In this document: one piece after another, positions 39,010 through 57,544 of the stretch
How the letters are laid out: each line of letters begins with the position of its first letter
Numbering within the stretch: position 1 is the first letter of the stretch
NCBI GenBank assembly: GCA_965243425.1
Contig: OZ251550.1
Coordinates: forward strand, 446,579-510,578
DNA from: Nitrospirales bacterium
GTDB taxonomy: Bacteria > Nitrospirota > Nitrospiria > Nitrospirales > UBA8639
Length of the DNA: 64,000 nt
Reading direction: 5' to 3'
Made by a program: the position numbers and the translations under genes
Notes under the pieces: model-generated
What the model was told of the DNA's origin: nothing
What the model saw: the letters and a program-made list of their open reading frames with translations, nothing else
Databases searched by the model: none

Positions 39010-40551
39010 TCATCCCTTCGACCGGAAGGTGCGACTCGACCGGACGGCAATATTGGAGGAACCAATCTCATGAGCGTGCGACAGGATGGCCTCAATCATT
39101 TCTTTTGCGGCGTGTGGTGATTGCGATACCTCCGCCAAGGTTTGAAAAATCTTTCTATAGGTCGATATCTCAGAATCCGTGATATTTCTGAACATCGGCC
39201 GGCTCGTCCTAGGTTTGAAATTGTCCAATTTCGTCCCCATCACCTCTAGTTGCTCAAGATCATCTTTCGTGTGGCCATTTTTTGGATCGAGGGTCTCATC
39301 GCGGATATCCCGAAGATGTTTCAACGCCTGTCTGACCATAGCTTTCGCATCTTGAGGGAATAGATATCCAGAAACCGCAAGATCATAGGTTTCCTCCATT
39401 TGGCGTAGTGTAGACAGAAACTTCCGCTTTTTGTTGCGCATCGCCGATGCCTTCCGGCATCGAGTCACTACTCTACGGATAACGGCGGCAAGCTGGTTTT
39501 CAAGATTTCGCGTGTGCGGCCCAGGTTCAAAGTAATCGCGTCGTCCGTTCGGGACGATACGTGGGTCCACAACGTGAATCTCACCGACGCACCAGCGGTT
39601 GAATCTTTCATCTTGAAAGAGGCGATCGAAAACGGCCTCACTGCCTATCTGGATGTTTCCTACACGTGCTCGAACACCCCGAATCCCAGCCTCTTTTGGT
39701 ATCGCGCCGAAGTATGATGAATGGGCAACCCAGCCAACGGCAGCACGTTCGCTCTTGTCTGCAGAAGGAATGCCGATTTCTTCGAATTCTCTGAAGCAGT
39801 CCTCTCGGTCCTGCGACAATCGAATCATCTCGCCATATCGTCGCGTGATGGGCAGGCGTTCGCCAGCAAAGATGATCTCTAGCGCCAATGGTGACTCATT
39901 CGCTCCGAAGAGGTTTTCGATGTCTGACGCGAATGGAAATATCGGAGACATCGGAACGGGACAAACTTCCCCGATGTACGTTCGGACGGCTTCCCGGTTA
40001 AGTATCAGCCCCGCAGCGTGCCGCCCGACACCACCGACTTCAACCTCGAAGAAATGGGCGGGATAGTCCAAGCCAGCCACGGTCTCAACTCTGACGCACT
40101 CACGAATCGCGCGTTCTATCTTTCCAGTCTCAGTAATGCACTTGCGGAGTTTGGAGCCATTCCAGACGATACGGGTGGCAGGACGTTCACTTTCGGCACG
40201 TGTTAAGAACGTCACGGATTCAGCGAAAGCGAGTCCCGACAAACGTCCAATTCCGCGAAACCCTCTATCGGTTTTTCGTCGCTTTCGGCTCCTGGCGATG
40301 GGTAGCAATTCCCTGACCGCTGCCTCGTATGACAACCCAGGCCCGTTATCTCGAATCTTCACGCGCAACCCGGACGGGTCAATGTCAACCTCGATCTTCC
40401 CGTTCACTGCGTCACCGGCGGAGACGATTGCGTCCGCCGCATTCTGGATATACTCACGATAGATGGCCAGTGGATTGTCGTACAGACCGACAGTGATGAG
40501 GTTGAATAAGTCGCCGCCTACCAACGATTCCGGTGCGTCTGCGTTCGGCAT
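39010..40551 (-). CDS. GHKL-superfamily ATPase (Hsp90/MORC-like, HATPase_c_3 type)
   Basis: Bergerat-fold boxes: N box EYIQNAADA, G1 box DNGPGL, G2 box GFRGIGRLSG. 513 aa with a large uncharacterised C-terminal half. Last gene of the six-gene operon. Confidence 0.8.
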   Translation of the reverse strand: MPNADAPESLVGGDLFNLITVGLYDNPLAIYREYIQNAADAIVSAGDAVNGKIEVDIDPSGLRVKIRDNGPGLSYEAAVRELLPIARSRKRRKTDRGFRGIGRLSGLAFAESVTFLTRAESERPATRIVWNGSKLRKCITETGKIERAIRECVRVETVAGLDYPAHFFEVEVGGVGRHAAGLILNREAVRTYIGEVCPVPMSPIFPFASDIENLFGANESPLALEIIFAGERLPITRRYGEMIRLSQDREDCFREFEEIGIPSADKSERAAVGWVAHSSYFGAIPKEAGIRGVRARVGNIQIGSEAVFDRLFQDERFNRWCVGEIHVVDPRIVPNGRRDYFEPGPHTRNLENQLAAVIRRVVTRCRKASAMRNKKRKFLSTLRQMEETYDLAVSGYLFPQDAKAMVRQALKHLRDIRDETLDPKNGHTKDDLEQLEVMGTKLDNFKPRTSRPMFRNITDSEISTYRKIFQTLAEVSQSPHAAKEMIEAILSHAHEIGSSNIAVRSSRTFRSKG

Positions 40552-40572
40552 TTCATTCCCCAGGAATACTGG

Positions 40573-42270
40573 TCAGTCCGCCGTCTTCACTCGGCGATGG
40601 TCATCCTGTTCCAGTACGTGTTCATGGTCGAACAGGCCGGCATCTTCAACGGTCTCAGACTGTTCAGGCATACTGAGGTCTGAATCGAACGTGAGCAACC
40701 GTGGCAAATCGGATATGCCGTCGGCTATCGGCCCGTCCTTGATATCCAGGGTGTGAAACCGCAGAACTCGTCTGATAAGCGGATCAATCCCGCGGTCTTT
40801 GGCCAACCGCTGGTAATAGTCACGCCGGAGCTCCGTCGCTTCCGTAGGTCCAGACAGAAGATGGATCAATTCCCGTTCTTGACGTTCCGAGAAACGGCGA
40901 CATAACGCCATGTATTCGTCACGGACCGGCTGTCCTGCATCCTTCTCGTAGTAATCACGGTGAAAAATGAAGGCATGAGGAAGACTCAATAATCGCTCGA
41001 ACGCTCGACGGTCCTCACCGTAGGCCCGCATGAAGAAGGACTGGTTGCCACTGACAATACCACGAGTGGCTTGTAGCATGATCTGAAACGAACGGAGGAA
41101 ATACCGGTTCCAGCGGTCCCCAACATGCGACCTGTCTTTGAGGGTGAGGGGTTGATACCGCATCGGGAACGACCAAATACGGATTCCCAATTCCTCATTC
41201 ATGCGAATATTGAGCCGCATCCGTTCATACAAATCAGCCGGAGTGTCCATAAAATTGTATAGCAAGTAGTTAGACAAGGCCGTAATACCATGATCACACG
41301 CCATACGGACAGAGGCTTCATAGACCGTCCTGAGACCGATATGGTCAAACGCGATCCTCAACGGGTTGATGCAGATGGTCGACATCTCGCGCAAAAACAT
41401 CGGGGTCTTGGCGAGAATACGGGCATCGACTCCCTGGTTGAAATCAACCCGACGCTTGATGGGCTGCCTGCCATTGCGGCCGAGTTTCGCCCCTGCGGTG
41501 AACCCAAGGTCACGGATTTCGGCCATCACTTCCTTGAACCGTGCGGAGGCGGTAATGTTGTTATCCATCAGCACGAGGTCCTTTTTCGTCCCATGTGCGA
41601 CATTGATTCCGTTGACGAGCCTCGCCAGGGGGGGCATTTCCCGCTGCGCCCCTTCCAGTTTCGGCACGCCACAGAACGCACATTGTCTGACGCAGCCCCG
41701 CGAGGCGTAGCCGAAATACGCATCATGCACGGGATAGCGGTAGTCAATCTGGTCAAGAATCCCGTAATCCGGCACCCGTTCTTCAATCGGCATGCCGCCC
41801 AGGTCTTCAGCGCCGAAATCCCCATCGGCCGCTGATAAGTCCAGTGCCAACGCTGGTGGGCGGTCCAGCAGGCCCTTGATAAAGCGAACGCCCGCCCATC
41901 GCGGCTCTTTCACGAACTCCTCATACATCAGTGAGGCAGCGATGCCACCAACAAAGACCCGTTCCGATTGGTTGCCCGCCGCCCGAATAGCGAAGTCGAT
42001 CGCTGTCGCCGTCCGTGCCCATTCGAAGCTGAACAGCGTCGTCACGTAGACACGGTCCCACGCTTGCTCCAATACCGCAGGCGTTGCACCCTTCACGAAC
42101 ATCACACGGTCACCCCGACCACAGGGGCCGTGATACGCAGCCAGTTTCATCAGGCCAAGCGGTGGGTACTTATTCGGATATCCTGGTTCGATCAGCAGGA
42201 TGTTTTTCGGATTCATGGGGTTGCTTGTTACTTTAGTAAGCGTAGAAATTTTATCCGTTGCAAATTTCAT
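40573..42270 (-). CDS. Radical SAM protein with B12-binding-like N-terminal domain and long C-terminal extension
   Basis: CX3CX2C cluster motif in YASRGCVRQCAFCGV. N-terminal NILLIEPGYPNKYPPLGLMKLAAY is typical of the Rossmann-like domain of class-B-type radical SAM enzymes. 565 aa; an alternative start is at 42216. Confidence 0.8.
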   Translation of the reverse strand: MKFATDKISTLTKVTSNPMNPKNILLIEPGYPNKYPPLGLMKLAAYHGPCGRGDRVMFVKGATPAVLEQAWDRVYVTTLFSFEWARTATAIDFAIRAAGNQSERVFVGGIAASLMYEEFVKEPRWAGVRFIKGLLDRPPALALDLSAADGDFGAEDLGGMPIEERVPDYGILDQIDYRYPVHDAYFGYASRGCVRQCAFCGVPKLEGAQREMPPLARLVNGINVAHGTKKDLVLMDNNITASARFKEVMAEIRDLGFTAGAKLGRNGRQPIKRRVDFNQGVDARILAKTPMFLREMSTICINPLRIAFDHIGLRTVYEASVRMACDHGITALSNYLLYNFMDTPADLYERMRLNIRMNEELGIRIWSFPMRYQPLTLKDRSHVGDRWNRYFLRSFQIMLQATRGIVSGNQSFFMRAYGEDRRAFERLLSLPHAFIFHRDYYEKDAGQPVRDEYMALCRRFSERQERELIHLLSGPTEATELRRDYYQRLAKDRGIDPLIRRVLRFHTLDIKDGPIADGISDLPRLLTFDSDLSMPEQSETVEDAGLFDHEHVLEQDDHRRVKTAD

Positions 42271-42305
42271 TTAGCCAAATGCTGTCGGTAGTATTTTGAA
42301 CTGAC

Positions 42306-43319
42306 TCATCCATCTTTGATCTTCTTAATCATGTCATTGATACGCTGAACGGTTCTGTTTAATTTGCGAACTTCCTGATCCAATGAATTCAATGCATTGT
42401 TATCTAGCTGTTTAAGCTCTTTTTCCGTAATATCACTTAAACGTTGATGTGCCTGTTTGACTCTCTCATGTGCGCCACTGATCTTCGCATCTTGATAGCC
42501 TTCGTCAAGAGTCACCGTACCGTTAATGTACTTTTTCAGCACTTTCGGTTTGGAAATAATCGTCGGCAACTTATCCCGAAGATTTGGTGCAGTAAATTCA
42601 ACTTCACTATCCTCATGACCAAGTTCCTTGATTTTCTTTAAAAGAAAATCTCGCAATTCGATATTGTCAGTTATCGACGCAGATATCTGCCGATTTCGCA
42701 CAAGCACATCGTAATAGGCGAAATGGGATATGTTGTCATTATCTCCGTTTTCGTGCATCTTGGAAATAATTTCGACCCTTTTTTTGATCTCGAGTTCCGT
42801 TTCGCCAAATGTCTTTGCAATATTTTCAATGCTAATTTTGCGGTGGAATCGTACAAAAGCAAAATTGGCCTTCTCGTAAGCAGACCACTGTGTTTTGCCT
42901 TTGACATGAATCTGATTTAGGAAAGCTCCTTGTTGCTCATCTGTCAGACTGCTTACTATGTCACAAGGAATAAGTTCCCATTCCCCCTCAGCCTTCTCCT
43001 GCTGCAGTTGTCGATAAACGGCTAATCGAGAATTACCTTCTATGACTTCTTTGGTGTCGTGGCGAACTAATATCGGCTCCATAAGACCGCCATGCCGTTT
43101 TATTTCTGGCTTCAAATTCTTAACACTCGCCTCTTCCAGGAGCTTTCTAAATATTTTGTCTTGTTGTTCTTCATCGGTTAGGTCATCGAAATCGGGTTCA
43201 CCATGCGTACAGGCATATACTCTCGGGTTATCTTTCAGGAACTTGAGATCATTTATTTCGAGGTAGTCATTAGTCAGCGGAATGGTTTCACCAAGAATTT
43301 TCATATCTTTCTCTTTCAT
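42306..43319 (-). CDS. ParB/Srx N-terminal-domain protein, paralogue 2
   Basis: ATG at 43319 preceded by GGAGGATCACAAAAC. Core EPILVRHDTKEVIEGNSRLAVYRQL, then WSAYEKANFAF and a long coiled-coil-like tail. Same architecture as 45226..46260. Confidence 0.75.
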   Translation of the reverse strand: MKEKDMKILGETIPLTNDYLEINDLKFLKDNPRVYACTHGEPDFDDLTDEEQQDKIFRKLLEEASVKNLKPEIKRHGGLMEPILVRHDTKEVIEGNSRLAVYRQLQQEKAEGEWELIPCDIVSSLTDEQQGAFLNQIHVKGKTQWSAYEKANFAFVRFHRKISIENIAKTFGETELEIKKRVEIISKMHENGDNDNISHFAYYDVLVRNRQISASITDNIELRDFLLKKIKELGHEDSEVEFTAPNLRDKLPTIISKPKVLKKYINGTVTLDEGYQDAKISGAHERVKQAHQRLSDITEKELKQLDNNALNSLDQEVRKLNRTVQRINDMIKKIKDG

Positions 43320-43344
43320 GTTTTGTGATCCTCCATAACAAATA

Positions 43345-44811
43345 TTAGGAATGTCCAGGAGGTGAGAGTATTTGTGCCAACGCCCCAGACAGATCACACG
43401 TAAACGTCACGTCAAACTCATCGCGCAACATATCGCCTTGCGTTAGCTGAGCGGCTTGATATTTGGCATTCAGTAACATGTCCACCCACTCATCAATGGT
43501 GTCTCTAGCGATTAGATTATGTACGAAACACTCTACGGTTTGTGAAATTCGATGGATGCGATCCTGTGCTTGAAGATAGTCATCAAGGCTGAATCCGCGG
43601 TCATAGAATATTGCGTGATTCGCAATAGTTAAGGTCAATCCTTCTTTTGCTGCGCCTGGAGTGGCTAACAAAATTCTGCAACCATTATCCGTCTTGAATT
43701 TTCTAATTGATTCGTTTCGATCAGAAACGGACATAGAGCCATGCACCATCTGCGGCATGAATTGATTTAGTTTTTTGTTCAACCATTCGACATTGTTGAC
43801 AAATCCGGTCCATATAATTGCTTTGTTCGACTGAAGATCAATATCACCAAATAACTCAACAAGCTTTGGATATTTTCCAGGAAGCTCATTATAGGTTTCA
43901 TCCACAAGAACAGGATTCGATGCGCATTGCACCAAGCGCAACAGACGTTTCAAAATGTCTTCTGCGTCATCAATGACAAAACCGTCGACGCCATCCAACT
44001 CGTAAGCCATTTCGTCTCTGTAAGCAGCATATATTGCAGATTGGTGAGGTGCCAGTTCGACAAAATGAGTTAGAATGGTTTTATCAGGAAGTTCGATACC
44101 TGCAGTGCGCTTCGTATCGCGTACCGAGAAATGCTTGATCCTGCCCATAACATCAGCTAACCGCATGCCATACTCAGACACCGAGACAGATTTAAGTGGC
44201 AAATCAAGTGCCGTTTTGAATTCGGCAAACGAATCACCAAGCGATTTACCATCATCGAGAAACTTGATCTGTGACCAGATGTCATAGGGGCGATTAGCCA
44301 CGGGAGTTCCGGTCATGATGATACGACGCACGAATCTATCAGCGAGAGAATGAAAGCAGACCGATAGCTTTGATTCTGGATTCTTAATCTTCTGACTTTC
44401 GTCCAGGATTGCTCCCACTTGGCAGGTACCAAGGAACTCACGTATGAGATCAAGGTTTGTCGATACAATTTCGTAGTTCATGATGTAAACCAGGACTGGC
44501 GAGTTCAAGGCAATGCTGTTTTCTCGACGGTTATCTGACAGAATTCTAGGCGTGACATGCGAGTGTGACACCAGTTCATCAAACCAATTTTGAACCAGCG
44601 TCTTTTTGGTGATAACGAACACGGTATCGACGACATCTTCACTTAGCCACAACAACATCAGATCAATCGCGATTTTTGTCTTGCCCAGTCCCTGTTCATG
44701 AAATATTGCAGCGTGAGGCAAAGATTTCACTGCCCTGACAGCATCAAGCTGATATGGGTAGGCATCATGTTTGGCGTTCAGCATAGGGGGTTTTCTTAGC
44801 TTAAATGCCAT
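43345..44811 (-). CDS. SNF2-family (SF2) helicase/translocase, minimal 488-aa form
   Basis: Motif I EQGLGKT, motif II ILDESQKIKN, motif III IMTGTPVAN, and motif VI QAQDRIHRISQ in a Helicase_C-like half. Confidence 0.88.
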   Translation of the reverse strand: MAFKLRKPPMLNAKHDAYPYQLDAVRAVKSLPHAAIFHEQGLGKTKIAIDLMLLWLSEDVVDTVFVITKKTLVQNWFDELVSHSHVTPRILSDNRRENSIALNSPVLVYIMNYEIVSTNLDLIREFLGTCQVGAILDESQKIKNPESKLSVCFHSLADRFVRRIIMTGTPVANRPYDIWSQIKFLDDGKSLGDSFAEFKTALDLPLKSVSVSEYGMRLADVMGRIKHFSVRDTKRTAGIELPDKTILTHFVELAPHQSAIYAAYRDEMAYELDGVDGFVIDDAEDILKRLLRLVQCASNPVLVDETYNELPGKYPKLVELFGDIDLQSNKAIIWTGFVNNVEWLNKKLNQFMPQMVHGSMSVSDRNESIRKFKTDNGCRILLATPGAAKEGLTLTIANHAIFYDRGFSLDDYLQAQDRIHRISQTVECFVHNLIARDTIDEWVDMLLNAKYQAAQLTQGDMLRDEFDVTFTCDLSGALAQILSPPGHS

Positions 44812-45245
44812 ATTCTACCGCCATTTGAGTCCAGCAACCAAAAGTCGCAGCCGTCGAAGACTGCAATGGTTGTACTTGTTACATTCGTAACTTGACGTGC
44901 AAAACGCAATAAGGTTTTGGCGCGATTCGCTCCATAGCCGGTTACTGAGAGAACGAAGAAACCATTCCTTCTTCGCTCAAGATAGTTGATAAAAGAGATT
45001 ACTTGTTTGTTGGTGTGTTTGTTGTCAAGGTCGCCATCAGTTTTGGCTTCAGCAATGACAATAGAACTCTCTGACTCTCCGGTGGCATACACATCCGGAC
45101 GGAATCCATCAACTACTGGAGGCACTGGGTCGCCGGGATTCTGTTGCACGTCAGTAATGAACGACATTAATGGACACCGTGCCTCAAGCACTTTCACTAC
45201 CTGAATTACCAAATTCCTATGCTGTTCACTCTGAGACATCTTCAA
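44796..45245 (-). CDS. PD-(D/E)xK-type nuclease-fold protein (149 aa)
   Basis: RPDVYA ... SSIVIAEAKT gives a D...ExK arrangement on predicted strands. It overlaps both neighbours (20 nt and 16 nt). Confidence 0.55.
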   Translation of the reverse strand: MKMSQSEQHRNLVIQVVKVLEARCPLMSFITDVQQNPGDPVPPVVDGFRPDVYATGESESSIVIAEAKTDGDLDNKHTNKQVISFINYLERRRNGFFVLSVTGYGANRAKTLLRFARQVTNVTSTTIAVFDGCDFWLLDSNGGRIWHLS

Positions 45246-46260
45246 GCAGCCCTTGCAGACGTGCTGACAAATCCTCCAGGGTGTTTATCTGCTCCGCAAC
45301 CTCGTTGCGTTCCTTGTTTTTTAGTGCCCGCACCTCAGAATAAGGCAAATCATTGATGCGCCGTGCAAGAACTTCTGCTAGCTGATATATAGATGCGGTT
45401 TCCAGCGTAATTTTGCGGCTTGTTTGACCGAGATCTTTTTGTGCTTGTTGGTCAAGTAGTCTGGTGGCCGCTTCTATGGAACGAGGGCCTCCGGTAAGGA
45501 ATGTTCTTTTAGCTTCTTCGTTACGAAGAACTTTGGGTAACTGGCGTACATCTTCCAACCGGTATATTTTTCCGTCACGAATCCATTCCCCAAAGTCTTT
45601 CAGGTCTAAATCAGCCTCGAATATGGCATCCTTGATCCTTGATTTCTGCAATTCAACAAAACCGCTAAACCTCTCGATTTTAAACGCCGGGTCATCAACC
45701 ACATCACGATAATATTCATTCATGTCATGATAAGCATCAATCTGACGCTCTATGTTAGTTTTGTTGCCACCACAGAGTGCTATCATTTCGTCGTAACTCA
45801 TGAACTTGCTGTTACGTAGATAATGAAGATATCTTGCCTTTTCGTAGGCAGGCCATTCTCTGGCACCAACTAGGTGAGCCGACACACGAATTGTCTCAAT
45901 GTCGCGTTGGTCAGCATCGGCTAAAACTACTGCTTTGATCTCAGACCAAGTTCCTTCTATGGCATCTCTAAGAAATTCTTTATAGATAGCAAGCCGGGTA
46001 TTTCCATCAATGCAAACATATCCGACGTCTTTATTTATAACGGTAATCGGGGACATCACCCCACCACTGGCGCGGATTGAATCTCTAAGAGAAAAATAAG
46101 AGGAAGTACCCGCTACCCCATCTTGAGCCGAACGCAAGGCGAAGTGAATATGCTTAGCATTTGGCTGATCTCCATACTTCTCCAACGCCTTTTTTATTCT
46201 AGGGTTATCAGTGTCGAAGGAAACCGAATTGACGTTCAGCATTGTGTGTTTTTCTACCAT
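45226..46260 (-). CDS. ParB/Srx N-terminal-domain protein, paralogue 1
   Basis: DTDNPRI ... SPITVINKDVGYVCIDGNTRLAIYKEF ... REWPAYEKARYLHYL. 344 aa; first gene of the operon. Confidence 0.75.
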   Translation of the reverse strand: MVEKHTMLNVNSVSFDTDNPRIKKALEKYGDQPNAKHIHFALRSAQDGVAGTSSYFSLRDSIRASGGVMSPITVINKDVGYVCIDGNTRLAIYKEFLRDAIEGTWSEIKAVVLADADQRDIETIRVSAHLVGAREWPAYEKARYLHYLRNSKFMSYDEMIALCGGNKTNIERQIDAYHDMNEYYRDVVDDPAFKIERFSGFVELQKSRIKDAIFEADLDLKDFGEWIRDGKIYRLEDVRQLPKVLRNEEAKRTFLTGGPRSIEAATRLLDQQAQKDLGQTSRKITLETASIYQLAEVLARRINDLPYSEVRALKNKERNEVAEQINTLEDLSARLQGLLEDVSE

Positions 46261-46266
46261 TTTCTT

Positions 46267-46271
46267 CTCCT
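46267..46271 (-). promoter_or_regulatory. Shine-Dalgarno (AGGAG) for the first gene of the six-gene operon
   Basis: The minus strand reads CAGGAGAAGAAAATG, with AGGAG 6 nt upstream of the ATG at 46260. Confidence 0.5.
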
Positions 46272-46708
46272 GAAATACGCATACTATAATTTATGGTCCT
46301 TGACTTCGCCCTTTTGACAGTACTCTTCCTGCTTCAGAAATTATCGAACGTGATCCGTGTGTTCTCTCAATACACAAATAGAAGCCGTCATCGAAAGTTT
46401 TTAGGCGATGGGTTAAATGCTTACGTCGCTTGACCGGATTCGCCTTCAACATCGGTCGTACTCTAACCTCCCTTACAGCAAGACACCACGGCACTTCACC
46501 TACTTGTCCTGCACGCACACCACCATACCGACTCGTATCCGTATGGTAACGGTCAACTTGGTATCCCGCAACATTTTGAGATAAGTTCCCCACAACTGAT
46601 CCGTTCCGTTCTGTTCAAATGGTTTGAGAAGGGAGTAGACTGGTTTTGGTGTAAAATTTGTGTCAGGATTGTTGGCCGTTGATCGTGCAAGTATAGGAGG
46701 GATAGACG

Positions 46709-54553: not shown

Positions 54554-54653
54554 ATGGAAAACCGTATTTCATATATGAAAAAGCGTCACACAGGACCTCT
54601 GTTCACCACCTTTGGCACAAGCGTGGCGAAACGACCATCGGCGTAACGCCTTA

Positions 54654-54902
54654 TCAGAGGAGGGGTTGACCATTGCTCCATAGCTCGTATTCACTAATAT
54701 CAATAGTATTGTTCCATACGACGGCATACCCGCCTTGCTCCACTTGAACGGATTTGAATAACGCGGGATTTCTCAAAGGCGCAAACATTTCCTTTCTCAG
54801 CAATGGCGTCACGTCATACTTTCTTTTCTGATCGTTATCAAACTCGACTAAAAGCGTATGATCGTCAATCGTTTCGACTGCCTGGATTTTGGGATACGGC
54901 AT
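54654..54902 (-). CDS. DUF2442 domain protein
   Basis: 82 aa: MPYPKIQAVETIDDHTLLVEFDNDQKRKYDV...GGYAVVWNNTIDISEYELW. It starts 2 nt after the DUF4160 gene stop. Confidence 0.7.
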   Translation of the reverse strand: MPYPKIQAVETIDDHTLLVEFDNDQKRKYDVTPLLRKEMFAPLRNPALFKSVQVEQGGYAVVWNNTIDISEYELWSNGQPLL

Positions 54903-54904
54903 GA

Positions 54905-55153
54905 TTACTCCAATGGCGGTAGTCTGCGGAATTCTTGAGAAACCCACATCTCGTTCAATTCGCTTTTATTCAGCGTTGCCCATTCAATAACAAGCTTCTT
55001 GGCTCTTTTCGGTAGATCACCTTCTATCATTTCCAAGGTATTGATATGAAACAACCCCACACATTCACCATAAACCGCATGGAAGTGTGGGGGTGGATGG
55101 TCTCCAAAGAATAGCTTGATAACAATTCCATAAAATCTTGCAATTTCAGGCAT
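54905..55153 (-). CDS. DUF4160 domain protein
   Basis: 82 aa: MPEIARFYGIVIKLFFGDHPPPHFHAVYGE. This is the hallmark DUF4160 N-terminus. Confidence 0.75.
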   Translation of the reverse strand: MPEIARFYGIVIKLFFGDHPPPHFHAVYGECVGLFHINTLEMIEGDLPKRAKKLVIEWATLNKSELNEMWVSQEFRRLPPLE

Positions 55154-55354
55154 ATCCTGTCCCAAGATATGTTTTATTTCGCATACAACGTAGCCCATAG
55201 AAATTCCTCCGTCAATCTTTGGACACTGGAGATGATGGGAGAGAACCCGCAATTCATGAAAAAGCCCAGGCATTCAGCCTCTACGGCTGCCGGATCGCAC
55301 TTGTTTTTCTGCTGCGGTTCAGATAAATCAAAACCACTGACGGAAGGAAACAAC

Positions 55355-55654
55355 GTGACGACGAAGACCAATCAATACCACCCAGATTACGCTGTTCCAC
55401 CAGGGTCAATCTTGAAGGAGTACCTTGAGGCACGCGGCCTTTCACGTGCCGAATTCGCCCGGCGGTGCGGCCGTTCCGCAAAACTCATCAGCGAGATCAT
55501 CGCGGGGAAGGCGCCGGTTACACCGGAAACCGCGCGGAAATTCGAGAAAGTCTCGGGAGTCGATGCAGACATCTGGCTCGGTATTGAAAAAGACTATCAG
55601 CTCTATCGCGCAAGAAAGAGCGAGGCGAAAAAGACAAAACAGGCGACGTCATGA
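55355..55654 (+). CDS. HigA-like XRE-family HTH protein (orphan)
   Basis: GTG at 55355 after GGAAGGA. PPGSILKEYLEARGLSRAEFARRCGRSAKLISEIIAGKAPVTPETARKFEKVSGVDADIWLGIEKDYQLY. No HigB-like ORF lies upstream. Confidence 0.75.
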   Translation: MTTKTNQYHPDYAVPPGSILKEYLEARGLSRAEFARRCGRSAKLISEIIAGKAPVTPETARKFEKVSGVDADIWLGIEKDYQLYRARKSEAKKTKQATS

Positions 55655-56091
55655 GCGACCGGACTCCCCAATCCATAGAAAAATTCAATCGGCTGAAGGC
55701 CATTCTGCGCGAGATGTTCCAGCTTGACAGAGGGGACCTCGATTTCGGGTTGTACCGGATCATGAACCTGAAAGCGGCGGAAATCGAAGCGTTCCTTGAC
55801 CACGACCTGTTGCCGCAGGTGAAGACGGCGCTGGCGGGGAATACGACCGACAGGCTGGCCGAATGGGAGAAGGAACTGGCTCAGGCCCATGAACGGGCCC
55901 ACGACGTTGAAGAACGAATCAGGGAAACCGAGCCGACCCTGCGTCTGCGCGCGTACATCCTGTCCGTCACCCCGCCTGACATGATCGACGACGGTAGCCG
56001 TTCATCAAACGATTGGCACGGTGACGGCGTGTATTTCCTGAATCGACCCGATTGCCTGAAACAGGTGATTGCGCACGCATTGGGTTCATAG
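55651..56091 (+). pseudogene. N-terminal fragment resembling large fused restriction-modification / DNA methyltransferase proteins
   Basis: An ATGA overlap couples it to the HTH gene. FNRLKAILREMFQLDRGDLDFGLYRIMNLKAAEIEAFLDHDLLPQV matches N-termini I recall from proteins over 1000 aa with a methylase domain. Here the ORF ends after 146 aa in a repeat cluster. Confidence 0.4.
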
Positions 56092-56124
56092 GCTGTGGAT
56101 TCATAAGCCGTGCATGTTCATGGC

Positions 56125-56230
56125 GTGTCCTCCGGCATTCCGCCCTCTTCCGGCATTCCCCTCTTCTCCGCCATGCTCCCCTCCTCTGTCATTCTCCCTT
56201 CCTCTGTCATTCTGAGCGAAGCGAAGAATC
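56125..56230. repeat. Pyrimidine-rich half-site array ending in GTCATTCTGAGCGAAGCGAAGAATC (56206-56230)
   Basis: CCGGCATTCC.., CCGGCATTCCCC.., CTCTGTCATTCTCCCTTC, CTCTGTCATTCTGAGCG. This is the mirror orientation of the 15052-15213 array. Confidence 0.75.
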
Positions 56231-56335
56231 TGAATTCCCGTTGTCACTGGAATGACGGAAGAGAAATGGCGAACGAATTATCTTCTGGGAGAAGTTTATG
56301 TTGCGATCTTGACGAAAAATAGTTACGATCTGGAA

Positions 56336-57544
56336 ATGATTCACACATTTTCTGTATCAAATTACCACTCAATACGCGAGGAAGTTGTTCTCGACCTGCG
56401 CATTCCCGGAACGGCTCCCGACTTGCCGCGCTTCCGGCGTAGCGAGGCCAAGCCGGATATTCGGCTCCCTTCCGTCGTAGTGCTCATCGGACCCAACGGG
56501 TCGGGCAAGACGACGCTGCTCCGTGCCTTGCTTGCTGCCGCCAACCTTGCCTCATCCGCGCCGCCCTTCGCAAACAATCCAATCAAAACCGTCCTACCAT
56601 TCTTTTCTACAAAGACCAGAGAAGAACCAACACGTTTTTGCTTGGAAATCGAGGAAGATTGGCCTGAACAGGGTGAAACCCGGCAACTGTTCCGCTATGA
56701 GTTGGTCGTGGGACGAAATGACTTCGACTTCCAGGGTCATTCCATGCATTATGAAGCACTGTCATACTTCCCGAAGGGCCGGCCCCGCCGTCTTTTCGAG
56801 CGCCGCGGTACACAAGAACCCATATACGGTTCCAGCGAGATCGGACTCAAACCCAAAGATGAACGCCTCAAGGCAGTTCGATCGGACACCTCCGTGCTCG
56901 GCACGCTCTCCCTACTCAACGTGCCTCTGGCCAGGCGAATCGCAGGATCAATGGGAACGCTATTTTACTGGAGTAGCATTGAGTATCCCGGAAAATGGTC
57001 TATTCCACCCGAAGCAGCAATCCATAATTTCGATAACTATCCCAAGATAAAAGCTTGGTTCAAGGATCACATCCAATCCATTGATCTGGGAATTCAAGAC
57101 GTAGAGATTCGAGGCAACTTCGAGGGAAAGGAAGTATTCTTCAACCATCATGGACTCAATGTACCAGTTCCTCTGGATTTTGAATCCAGCGGGACGAAAC
57201 GTCTGTTTCATCTACTACCTCAGCTCTATGTTGGGCTCGACCGCGGGATTCCTATCGTCCTTGACGAGATTGACGGCGACCTGCACGTGGATATCGCCGG
57301 CGAAGTGCTGAACTGGTTCCGCTCCCTAAAAACGAATCCCCACGGCGCACAGCTTCTCGTTACCTCTCACAACGTCGGCCTGCTTGACGATCTGGAGAAG
57401 GAAGAGGTGTTCATCACGGAGAAGGACGGCAACGGCGCGACCCGCGTACACGGCGCCCAGGACGTGCGCGGCCTTCGCCGTGACGCCCGCCTCTATCCCA
57501 AGTATCGAGCGGGGGTGCTCGGCGGTCTCCCGAAGATCGGCTGA
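56336..57544 (+). CDS. AAA_15/AAA_21-type ATPase (AbiLi/RloA-like)
   Basis: Walker A LIGPNGSGKTTLL, Walker B-like VLDEIDGDLH, signature-like SSGTKRLF, and LLVTSHN. 402 aa from the ATG at 56336. Confidence 0.8.
   Translation: MIHTFSVSNYHSIREEVVLDLRIPGTAPDLPRFRRSEAKPDIRLPSVVVLIGPNGSGKTTLLRALLAAANLASSAPPFANNPIKTVLPFFSTKTREEPTRFCLEIEEDWPEQGETRQLFRYELVVGRNDFDFQGHSMHYEALSYFPKGRPRRLFERRGTQEPIYGSSEIGLKPKDERLKAVRSDTSVLGTLSLLNVPLARRIAGSMGTLFYWSSIEYPGKWSIPPEAAIHNFDNYPKIKAWFKDHIQSIDLGIQDVEIRGNFEGKEVFFNHHGLNVPVPLDFESSGTKRLFHLLPQLYVGLDRGIPIVLDEIDGDLHVDIAGEVLNWFRSLKTNPHGAQLLVTSHNVGLLDDLEKEEVFITEKDGNGATRVHGAQDVRGLRRDARLYPKYRAGVLGGLPKIG

Follow-up and report, generated by a model that had tools for sequence, protein, structure and literature searches.

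A radical SAM enzyme and an Hsp90-like ATPase coupled to interchangeable DNA-directed modules: a candidate modification-restriction type system found across many phyla

The six-gene locus

The DNA considered here is a 64,000-nucleotide (nt) stretch from a Nitrospirales bacterium (contig OZ251550.1, positions 446,579 to 510,578), referred to throughout as the window. At 39010-46260 on its minus strand lie six co-directional open reading frames (ORFs), here called g1 to g6, which encode two ParB-like proteins, a predicted small nuclease, an SNF2-family translocase, a radical S-adenosylmethionine (SAM) enzyme and a GHKL ATPase. These genes make up a real, widely transferred and unnamed system, in which a conserved enzyme pair (g5 and g6, the core) is coupled to interchangeable DNA-directed nucleases and nucleoside triphosphate (NTP)-driven motors or clamps. 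An earlier annotation made from the sequence alone, the original prediction, had correctly placed all six ORFs at these coordinates and had proposed a candidate uncharacterised DNA-modification or anti-phage system; in this hedged form the proposal is supported, the gene set being unnamed and the domain assignments holding, with function as the predicted part. The features of the locus are listed below (aa, amino acids).

45226..46260, minus strand: g1, predicted ParB/Srx-fold protein 1, 344 aa, at the head of the accessory module
44796..45245, minus strand: g2, predicted small PD-(D/E)xK nuclease, 147-149 aa
43345..44811, minus strand: g3, SNF2-family translocase, helicase core only, 488 aa
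42306..43319, minus strand: g4, predicted ParB/Srx-fold protein 2, 337 aa, directly upstream of the radical SAM gene
40573..42216, minus strand: g5, radical SAM enzyme with a predicted B12-binding-like N-terminal domain, 547 aa (longest ORF to 42270)
40630..40650, minus strand: g5 C-terminal tail motif VEDAGLF, putative docking peptide, conserved within a disordered tail
39010..40551, minus strand: g6, Hsp90-like GHKL ATPase, 513 aa, constant companion of g5
46261..46708, minus strand: intergenic region from g1 to the divergent msrB, presumed promoter site by position only

The cluster is as tightly packed as first described, with overlaps of 20 nt between g1 and g2 and of 16 nt between g2 and g3, a gap of 25 nt in front of g4 when that gene is read from the ATG at 43319, and one of 21 nt between g5 and g6; the 35 nt originally given for the gap between g4 and g5 did not stand, the spacer being probably 89 nt long. 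The longest ORF of g4 covers 42306-43397, and a GGAGG sequence lies eight bases upstream of the ATG at 43319. For g5 the longest ORF covers 40573-42270, with a second ATG at 42216 that yields the 547-aa protein and the 89-nt spacer; the latter is most likely the true start, because thousands of homologues begin there, including the 93%-identical protein of locus L001 (547 aa). The AGGAG sequence reported before the g1 start is present at 46267-46271, 6 nt upstream of the ATG, and the quoted sequence motifs are all found in the translations, the catalytic ones being invariant among relatives. All six proteins thus look catalytically competent, judged by their intact motifs.

The genes also differ in base composition. 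The GC content of g1-g4 is 43.6%, with 41-45% at third codon positions (GC3), that of g5-g6 is 54.4% (GC3 56-64%), and that of the flanking housekeeping genes is about 58% (GC3 65-72%), so that the cluster is compositionally chimeric. The composition unlike the flanks that had been ascribed to the whole locus therefore applies strongly to g1-g4 and not strongly to g5-g6.

The radical SAM enzyme and its ATPase partner

g5 is a member of the radical SAM superfamily by both motif and fold. The three cysteines of its CX3CX2C motif (C176, C180 and C183) are invariant in 20 sequences, among which the only other invariant cysteine is C283. The structural model has a predicted local distance difference test (pLDDT) score of 61.7; it includes an N-terminal beta-alpha domain and ends in a tail with pLDDT below 50. 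Its best fold matches are two structures of TsrM, 6wtf and 6wte, with an expectation (E) value of 1.5e-6, 16-18% identity and a template modelling (TM) score of only 0.23, followed by MtaB. Searched by sequence against solved structures, g5 aligned only with the cluster loop of RimO (E 0.14), and its relatives match the Pfam Radical_SAM family at E 1e-5 to 1e-3, under the cutoff. Matches of these relatives to the B12-binding family (PF02310) are likewise sub-threshold; together with the low-TM fold matches they suggest that the N-terminal domain is B12-binding-like, and the B12-type radical SAM architecture that had been read from the sequence is consistent with both lines of evidence. A methylthiotransferase of the MiaB/RimO type was considered as an alternative identity and rejected, because these enzymes' conserved N-terminal cysteine triad was not found: in the N-terminal domain of g5 no cysteine reaches 90% conservation, and NCBIfam scores are 15-20 bits against cutoffs of 251-357.

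The disordered tail of g5 carries a short motif, (V/I)EDAGL(F/Y), that recurs in 79 of the 83 genome loci compared below and differs by a single residue in the other four, in the midst of variable sequence. It looks like a docking peptide, in which case its putative partner would be common to all module types. The EDAGLF core may bear a loose likeness to the peptides QADMF and QLGLF, by which proteins bind the beta clamp, and might itself be such a peptide.

g6 is a GHKL ATPase with the features of the Bergerat fold. It matches the HATPase_c and HATPase_c_3 profiles, and E33, N37, D68, G70 and G72 are invariant, as is the GFRGxG box. The GHKL-MORC-like label of the original prediction is borne out in its GHKL part; its MORC part is not supported and Hsp90-like is preferred, because the top 50 fold matches of the model (pLDDT 69) are all Hsp90, TRAP1, HtpG or GRP94, over the N-terminal and middle domains (E 3e-12), and among NCBIfam models 'HSP90 family protein' scores highest (E 9e-12).

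The radical SAM family is large and unusually conserved. More than 6900 homologues were scored, with no member of the top 120 falling below 69% identity; across loci the protein is 54-93% identical, and clustering at 50% places the close family in a single cluster. A search for Rosetta-stone fusions recovered longer relatives of 680-820 aa, the extra regions of which have no Pfam match.

The accessory-module proteins

The four genes upstream of the core encode proteins of graded certainty. g3 is clearly an SNF2-family translocase, as originally called: Pfam SNF2-rel_dom matches at E 1.6e-26 (93.5 bits, cutoff 24.9) and Helicase_C at E 2e-16 (60.6 bits, cutoff 23.5), and the GLGKT, DESQ and QAQDRIHRISQ motifs are present. 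g2 is a predicted PD-(D/E)xK nuclease. In an alignment of 21 sequences H7, P48-D49, E64-x-K66 and Q79 are invariant, and they are 100% conserved in 54 sequences; the nuclease call made earlier therefore agrees with an invariant P-D...E-x-K signature, accompanied by weak matches of 5 of the 21 sequences to Pfam REase_AHJR-like, a Holliday-junction-resolvase-like restriction fold (best E 0.003). No solved structure was matched by g2 at the sequence level.

An hhalign comparison (probability 99.9, E 6e-34) shows g1 and g4 to be paralogues, and a weak but consistent set of matches places both in the ParB/Srx superfamily. In profile searches the best solved-structure match of g1 is ParB 4umk (E 0.003) and that of g4 is Noc 7ol9 (E 0.005); g4 further matches Pfam ParB_N at E 0.0046, under the curated cutoff, and for g1 a Pfam search at E <= 0.01 returned nothing. 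Relatives of both proteins keep an invariant NPR and an invariant (D/E)GN(T/S)R nucleotide box, which reads DGNTR in g1, in place of the canonical GERR. The RefSeq name of the Rhizobium orthologue is 'ParB N-terminal domain-containing protein'. The earlier recognition of two ParB-like proteins is supported by these profile matches and invariant motifs.

g4 is the fastest-evolving gene, with the lowest identity in nearly every comparison; at locus L012, for example, it is 61% identical to its counterpart in the window, and its neighbours are 76-92% identical. In 29 of 43 loci the stop of g4 overlaps the start of the radical SAM gene, an arrangement that suggests the co-translation of a complex.

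A conserved core and its linked module

The distribution of the genes was followed in three collections. In a set with a single genome for each species, a scan for the radical SAM gene turned up at least 512 carriers, the top 80 of which are without exception metagenome-assembled and spread over ten or more higher taxa; 83 genome loci (L001-L083) were fetched for comparison. The radical SAM gene is present in 83/83 loci, and the GHKL ATPase gene adjoins it in 80/83 with a median spacer of 20 nt. The ParB-nuclease-SNF2-ParB module is found in about 53-55 of the 83 loci, or about two thirds, usually upstream of the core; it lies downstream in about 12 loci, mostly of Dehalococcoidia and other Chloroflexota, and is inverted in one. 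In a set of 72,556 plasmids, 12 records contain the radical SAM gene at full length and the very same 12 contain a full-length GHKL gene; the 7 plasmids with a relative of g1 all belong to these core-bearing 12. Relatives of g1 are found in many JGI metagenomes, and when metagenome contigs were chosen by g1 alone, the 32 with at least 6.5 kb downstream all hold the radical SAM and GHKL genes (32/32). The linkage thus runs one way: the accessory module is obligately linked to the core and was not seen without it. The gene neighbourhood recurs in hundreds of genomes, so that homologues are syntenic elsewhere, as the original prediction needed; its view of the six genes as one unit stands as far as recurring linkage goes, and gives way, as regards an indivisible unit, to a core with interchangeable modules. 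Radical SAM loci without any nuclease module also exist (L027, L077 and L082, for instance).

Cultured carriers include Rhizobium leguminosarum WSM1325, on plasmid pR132505 (RLEG_RS34150-34120, a version with seven genes), and Novosphingobium aromaticivorans DSM 12444, on plasmid pNL1 (SARO_RS17510-17535), where RefSeq labels the copies only generically ('radical SAM protein', 'ATP-binding protein', 'hypothetical protein'). Many carrier genomes bear the names of marine-sponge symbionts, an association taken from record titles and one paper, which documents two of the carriers, bin75 and bin125, as Aplysina aerophoba symbionts and reports an enrichment of defence genes in the genomes of sponge symbionts (PMC5649159). 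A system confined to sponges is ruled out by the full-length copies on plasmids of cultured Alphaproteobacteria; the g1 relatives in many JGI metagenomes, listed without habitat, were weighed alongside.

Alternative modules and genomic contexts

Loci without the four-gene module carry other combinations of nucleases and NTPases, which makes at least five module types. In 11 of the 83 loci the core is accompanied by a second GHKL protein together with HerA, an ATPase that matches PDB 7f6d (E 2e-26), and a nuclease resembling NurA; in 6-7 loci by a 772-aa protein that joins a DndB/DpdB-type DGQHR domain to a Swt1-HEPN domain, with an N-terminal nuclease-like motif discerned by eye only. A further module consists of a PIN_8 protein and a GHKL paralogue, and another of a longer GHKL protein (~600 aa) with a ~336-aa protein, c14, which has no Pfam or PADLOC match and matches the NCBIfam 'PP_RS20740 family' only weakly; this last pair is found in L019, L029, L034, L075, L076 and L081, twice in L019. 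A small DGQHR gene lies directly upstream of the radical SAM gene in 15/137 loci, a sub-lineage that includes plasmids of Rhizobium, Mesorhizobium, Agrobacterium and Novosphingobium.

The link to HerA and NurA recurs with radical SAM relatives that are only about 30% identical. The radical SAM family adjoins HerA and a NurA-like nuclease in the IMG/VR contigs L100, L101 and L103, and the same adjacency is seen in human-gut contig L087, deposited as unverified phage, and in the temperate Marinitoga camini virus 1. In the sampled neighbourhoods, the contexts are mobile or defence-like: conjugative plasmids, genomic islands, transposases, toxin-antitoxin genes, methyltransferases and a reverse transcriptase gene. 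The complete system is found on a small number of contigs in IMG/VR. A phage-borne system was considered and rejected: what the phage records of GenBank contain are distant relatives of the radical SAM protein, none above 31% identity. Such distant relatives, unaccompanied by GHKL or ParB partners, are encoded by a large set of viral contigs, namely in IMG/VR (L104-L170) and among GenBank phages such as Bacteroides phage LoVEphage MW660583.1; with 22-33% identity over about 150-340 residues of the N-terminal and core domains, they form a separate phage radical SAM family.

Histories of the two parts

The system has been horizontally transferred across many phyla, on plasmids and islands, and its two parts have separate histories. 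In one variant of the module, the median identities to the window are 67% for g1, 69% for g3, 56% for g4 and 67% for the radical SAM protein; in a second, they fall to 38%, 50% and 28% for g1, g3 and g4 and stand at 70% for the radical SAM protein. Deep variants of the module are thus paired with equally similar radical SAM proteins, which argues for separate histories and matches the break in GC content between g4 and g5.

The neighbours of the cluster in the window are a HAD hydrolase gene and msrB, as originally described, and four Nitrospirales genomes carry the system at this same HAD-to-MsrB chromosomal site, near ftsK, lolA, recG and msrB. In the most distant of the four (L004, OZ244060.1) the system proteins are 84-89% identical to those of the window, with g4 at 64%, and identity drops to 62-66% for FtsK, LolA and RecG in the flanks. 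This pattern suggests either that the island, or parts of it, has been exchanged between related genomes at a conserved site or that it is under very strong constraint. In Thermodesulfobacteriota, locus L083 (OZ242294.1, 10001-13641) has a radical SAM gene with the four-gene module upstream and no adjacent GHKL gene; the radical SAM gene abuts lolA and ftsK, the housekeeping pair that is also near the system in the window, which may be coincidence or a shared insertion site.

Other signals in the window

A consensus scan for promoters and terminators found fewer sites within the cluster than in shuffled sequence and is uninformative; a single transcript is compatible with it, though not proven by it. 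In the g1-msrB intergenic region (46261-46708) there is no conserved ORF, and the consensus scan gave no promoter. The search for signs of an integrative element found no convincing flanking direct or inverted repeats and no integrase among the neighbouring ORFs; the 64-kb window holds no tRNA gene, and an Rfam scan of it gave no match.

A dispersed 28-nt intergenic repeat, AGATTCTTCGCTTCGCTCAGAATGACAG, which contains a short internal inverted repeat, occurs in eight copies in the window where none would be expected by chance. The copies lie at the following positions, (-) marking the minus strand.

10320: copy of the 28-nt repeat
10681: copy of the 28-nt repeat
15035: copy of the 28-nt repeat
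15318(-): copy of the 28-nt repeat
47312: copy of the 28-nt repeat
47730: copy of the 28-nt repeat
56204(-): copy of the 28-nt repeat
61792(-): copy of the 28-nt repeat

The space between msrB and recG, immediately beyond the system, contains two of them, and the repeat looks like a repetitive extragenic palindromic (REP)-type element of the host genome. A second low-GC patch (about 46%) at 54650-57544 has small genes that, by eye, resemble a DUF2442/DUF4160 pair and a HigA-type helix-turn-helix antitoxin, followed by a 430-aa AAA-type ATPase, and may be another small accessory or toxin-antitoxin islet.

A candidate modification-restriction defence and its alternatives

How could such a core and its changing partners work together? 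The reading that we favour, to which we assign a probability of roughly 40%, is that the locus is a horizontally mobile, two-part defence of the modification-restriction type, the core of which marks self DNA. The core enzymes g5 and g6 would place a chemical mark on the cell's own DNA, in this lineage probably together with g4; g4, or the DGQHR protein in its stead, may recruit the core to DNA as an NTP-dependent loading partner; and g1-g3, perhaps together with g4, would combine a ParB-fold NTP switch or clamp, a nuclease and a translocase that find unmarked DNA, track along it and cut it. By analogy, a conserved enzyme with variable restriction partners is the pattern of Dnd (PMC10853773), and the loci that lack a nuclease module (L027, L077 and L082 among them) resemble the orphan modification modules of Dnd. 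A ParB-fold partner for a modifying enzyme is plausible because of the DpdB precedent, the DGQHR gene upstream of the radical SAM gene and the overlap of g4 with the latter. DNA as the substrate, the nature of the mark, its readers and an effect against phages or plasmids are the inferred parts of this reading. A more specific version holds that the radical SAM enzyme and the Hsp90-like ATPase, recruited by NTPases of the ParB/DndB fold, use radical chemistry to give genomic DNA a covalent mark of a kind not known before, by which a new family of modification-restriction systems would recognise self; C-methylation at an unactivated position or another cobalamin-dependent modification would be examples. 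In this specific form the proposal is doubtful.

It is important to set out what speaks against a self-marking core. Few radical SAM enzymes are known to work on polymeric DNA, and the high conservation of the enzyme would be equally compatible with a protein or nucleotide substrate. The g5 model is of modest quality and its match to TsrM has a low TM score, and cobalamin use is a prediction from them; the ParB-like assignments are weak, with E values of only about 0.003-0.005; and how g1 and g4 would share the work is conjecture. Domains that read modified bases (SRA, EVE, YTH and similar) were not detected, several loci lie among ordinary metabolic genes, and the operon is read from gene spacing. 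For every member of the family a DNA substrate, a modification and a phage phenotype are predictions.

Other readings of the same data differ mainly in what the core would do. The radical SAM enzyme could make a replication-blocking (deoxy)nucleotide analogue in the manner of viperin or OxsB, with the GHKL ATPase as its sensor or regulator and the nuclease and motor as a second, independent arm. A protein that is 54-93% identical across phyla and falls into one cluster at 50% fits a universal small-molecule substrate, and the B12-type architecture of g5 also points this way, OxsB being a B12-dependent radical SAM enzyme that makes oxetanocin; furthermore, the validated radical SAM defences that act via nucleotides are the viperins and Ophion. 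However, PADLOC viperin models are not matched, OxsB is absent from the top 50 fold matches of g5, and a nucleotide kinase, phosphatase or phosphoribosyltransferase (PRTase) partner of the kind that viperin, Ophion and OxsA/B have was not found. All partners are instead DNA-directed (ParB, DndB, SNF2, HerA, NurA, restriction endonuclease (REase), PIN), and the frequent translational coupling to a ParB-fold DNA-binding protein would be hard to explain, which makes this reading unlikely. Alternatively, the core could be an effector triggered by infection: invader DNA would be captured by the ParB, DndB or HerA modules, and the core, once switched on, would attack or alter either that DNA or a protein of host or phage, resulting in abortive infection or direct inactivation. 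Each alternative module indeed brings its own NTP-driven DNA-capturing proteins, like the HerA/FtsK 'capture' systems (PMC10853773), GHKL paralogues are found beside the radical SAM enzyme and also with the PIN, HerA and unknown modules, suggestive of GHKL-mediated coupling, and the conserved C-terminal docking motif suggests regulated recruitment. Yet a second destructive enzyme would be redundant beside dedicated nucleases, loci that have the radical SAM gene and lack a nuclease fit a benign mark better than a toxic effector, and no STAND, CARF or TIR sensor domain was found; an effector core is therefore an improbable reading.

A role outside immunity has also to be weighed, either in accessory DNA repair, for example radical lesion repair joined to HerA-NurA resection or SNF2 remodelling, or in the stability or partition of plasmids. 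HerA-NurA and SNF2 proteins are classical repair and remodelling machines, and the well-studied radical SAM enzyme that acts on DNA, spore photoproduct lyase, is a repair enzyme; many carriers are large plasmids, and the system occupies the same chromosomal site (ftsK, lolA, recG, msrB) in the four Nitrospirales genomes. Against such a role stand the patchy, cross-phylum distribution with swapped modules, the HEPN, PIN and restriction-type nucleases, and the toxin-antitoxin genes, methyltransferases and transposases among the neighbours; moreover, the ParB-like proteins have no canonical GERR box, and no ParA or centromere-type partner was seen. We regard a non-immune function as decidedly improbable. 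The idea that g1-g4 and g5-g6 are two unrelated systems side by side by chance would account for the difference in GC content between the halves and for a core without g1-g4 in about one third of loci, but it is rejected as barely credible because the linkage data contradict it: g1 relatives were found only with the core, in 7/7 plasmids, 32/32 metagenome loci with enough flanking sequence and about 53/83 genome loci and in several arrangements, and the g4 stop overlaps the radical SAM start in 29/43 loci. The self-marking core remains the reading that we prefer.

Should this preferred reading be true, a radical SAM route would join the short list of chemistries other than methyltransfer by which DNA is self-marked (phosphorothioate, 7-deazaguanine); the marking chemistry itself would be new, an epigenetic chemistry spread horizontally through at least ten higher taxa, and a bacterial Hsp90-like ATPase would gain a role outside protein folding. 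Meanwhile, a large, unusually conserved family that is mobile across phyla carries only generic annotation. One core with at least five modules offers natural experiments on how modification and restriction are coupled, the many carriers among marine-sponge symbionts give the question a bearing on sponge microbiomes, and cultured carriers make it testable.

Comparison with known systems

The six proteins were compared with PADLOC, NCBIfam and Pfam, in which no model names the gene set and NCBIfam offers no equivalog, and full-text searches of a literature library found no description of it. The statement that the locus fits no named system therefore stands, since none of the three collections gives a system-level assignment. 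The PADLOC search that had been recommended returned only helicase-domain matches of g3 (to ZorD, DpdE and DrmD) and a weak, partial match of g1 to PDC-M38A, in which residues 78-209 align with positions 86-226 of 715 (E 2.5e-7), far from full length.

Among radical SAM proteins, viperins differ from g5 in size (about 300 aa against 547) and in having no counterpart of its N-terminal domain, and g5 has no PADLOC match at E <= 0.01 in a library taken to include viperin models; it does not belong with the viperins. Ophion is a three-gene set, OpnA, OpnB and OpnC, that combines radical SAM, PHP and PRTase proteins (doi 10.1101/2025.09.30.679545). Neither a PHP nor a PRTase gene occurs within the locus or next to it, which sets it apart from Ophion as well. 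The class B radical SAM methyltransferase TsrM shares with g5 the predicted order of a Rossmann B12-binding-like domain, a CX3CX2C barrel and a helical C-terminal region; TsrM, however, serves natural-product biosynthesis, whereas the gene context of g5 is DNA-directed. As to g6, it weakly matches the N-terminal domain of the BbrUII/HgiDII restriction enzymes, TmtA and MzaB, and so resembles GHKL proteins of restriction contexts, but it scores as a member of none of MORC/paraMORC, BbrUII/HgiDII or Hsp90 and has no fused nuclease. It has no MORC-type protein among its top fold matches, and no precedent was found for its pairing with a radical SAM enzyme.

The translocase invites comparison with Zorya and DISARM. 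The best PADLOC match of g3 is ZorD (E 5e-47), which joins an SNF2 motor to a restriction-type nuclease, a union that is mirrored here by the two overlapping genes g2 and g3; the match covers the helicase half only, at 64 bits against a cutoff of 1500, and the window has no ZorA, ZorB or ZorC, so that the locus is not a Zorya system. Nor is it DISARM, as DrmA, DrmB, DrmC and DrmM are lacking and the DrmD-type matches reach 46 and 29 bits against cutoffs of 610-950. Unlike the HerA-NurA systems, the window has neither HerA nor NurA and carries the ParB/REase/SNF2 module in their place.

There are also likenesses to Dnd, Ssp and Dpd, and with respect to Dnd and Dpd the kinship is stronger than the original prediction had noted, owing to the DndB/DpdB-type DGQHR gene upstream of the radical SAM gene in one sub-lineage. 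The six proteins match no DndA/IscS, DndC, DndD, DndE or SspABCD model and do not belong to these systems, the chemistry of which cannot be shared because neither a cysteine desulfurase nor a PP-loop ATPase is present. What is alike is the organisation: in Dnd and Ssp a conserved modification core goes with varied restriction modules and often stands alone as an orphan modification module, the Dnd core combines with alternative restriction partners that include HerA-type ATPases and REase domains (PMC10853773), and DndB is itself a ParB/DGQHR protein. Dpd differs in its enzymes, as the window has no DpdA (TGT-like), DpdB, DpdC, preQ0 pathway or other Dpd restriction gene, so that it is not a Dpd locus; the candidate modifier here is a B12-type radical SAM enzyme with an Hsp90-like ATPase, and the alignment of g3 with the DpdE profiles is confined to their helicase part. 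At the same time, Dpd too is a multi-gene island for modification plus restriction, and the helicase domain of its SNF2 helicase DpdE matches g3 (E 6e-33). ParB folds bind CTP, ATP or GTP (doi 10.1101/2025.10.10.680097), and DpdB is a ParB-like ATPase that drives, and is required for, base insertion by DpdA (PMC12839542). In Dpd, then, an NTPase of the ParB superfamily (DGQHR) serves the DNA-modifying enzyme, and the sub-lineage of the system described here that is represented on rhizobial and Novosphingobium plasmids has just such a DpdB-like DGQHR gene.

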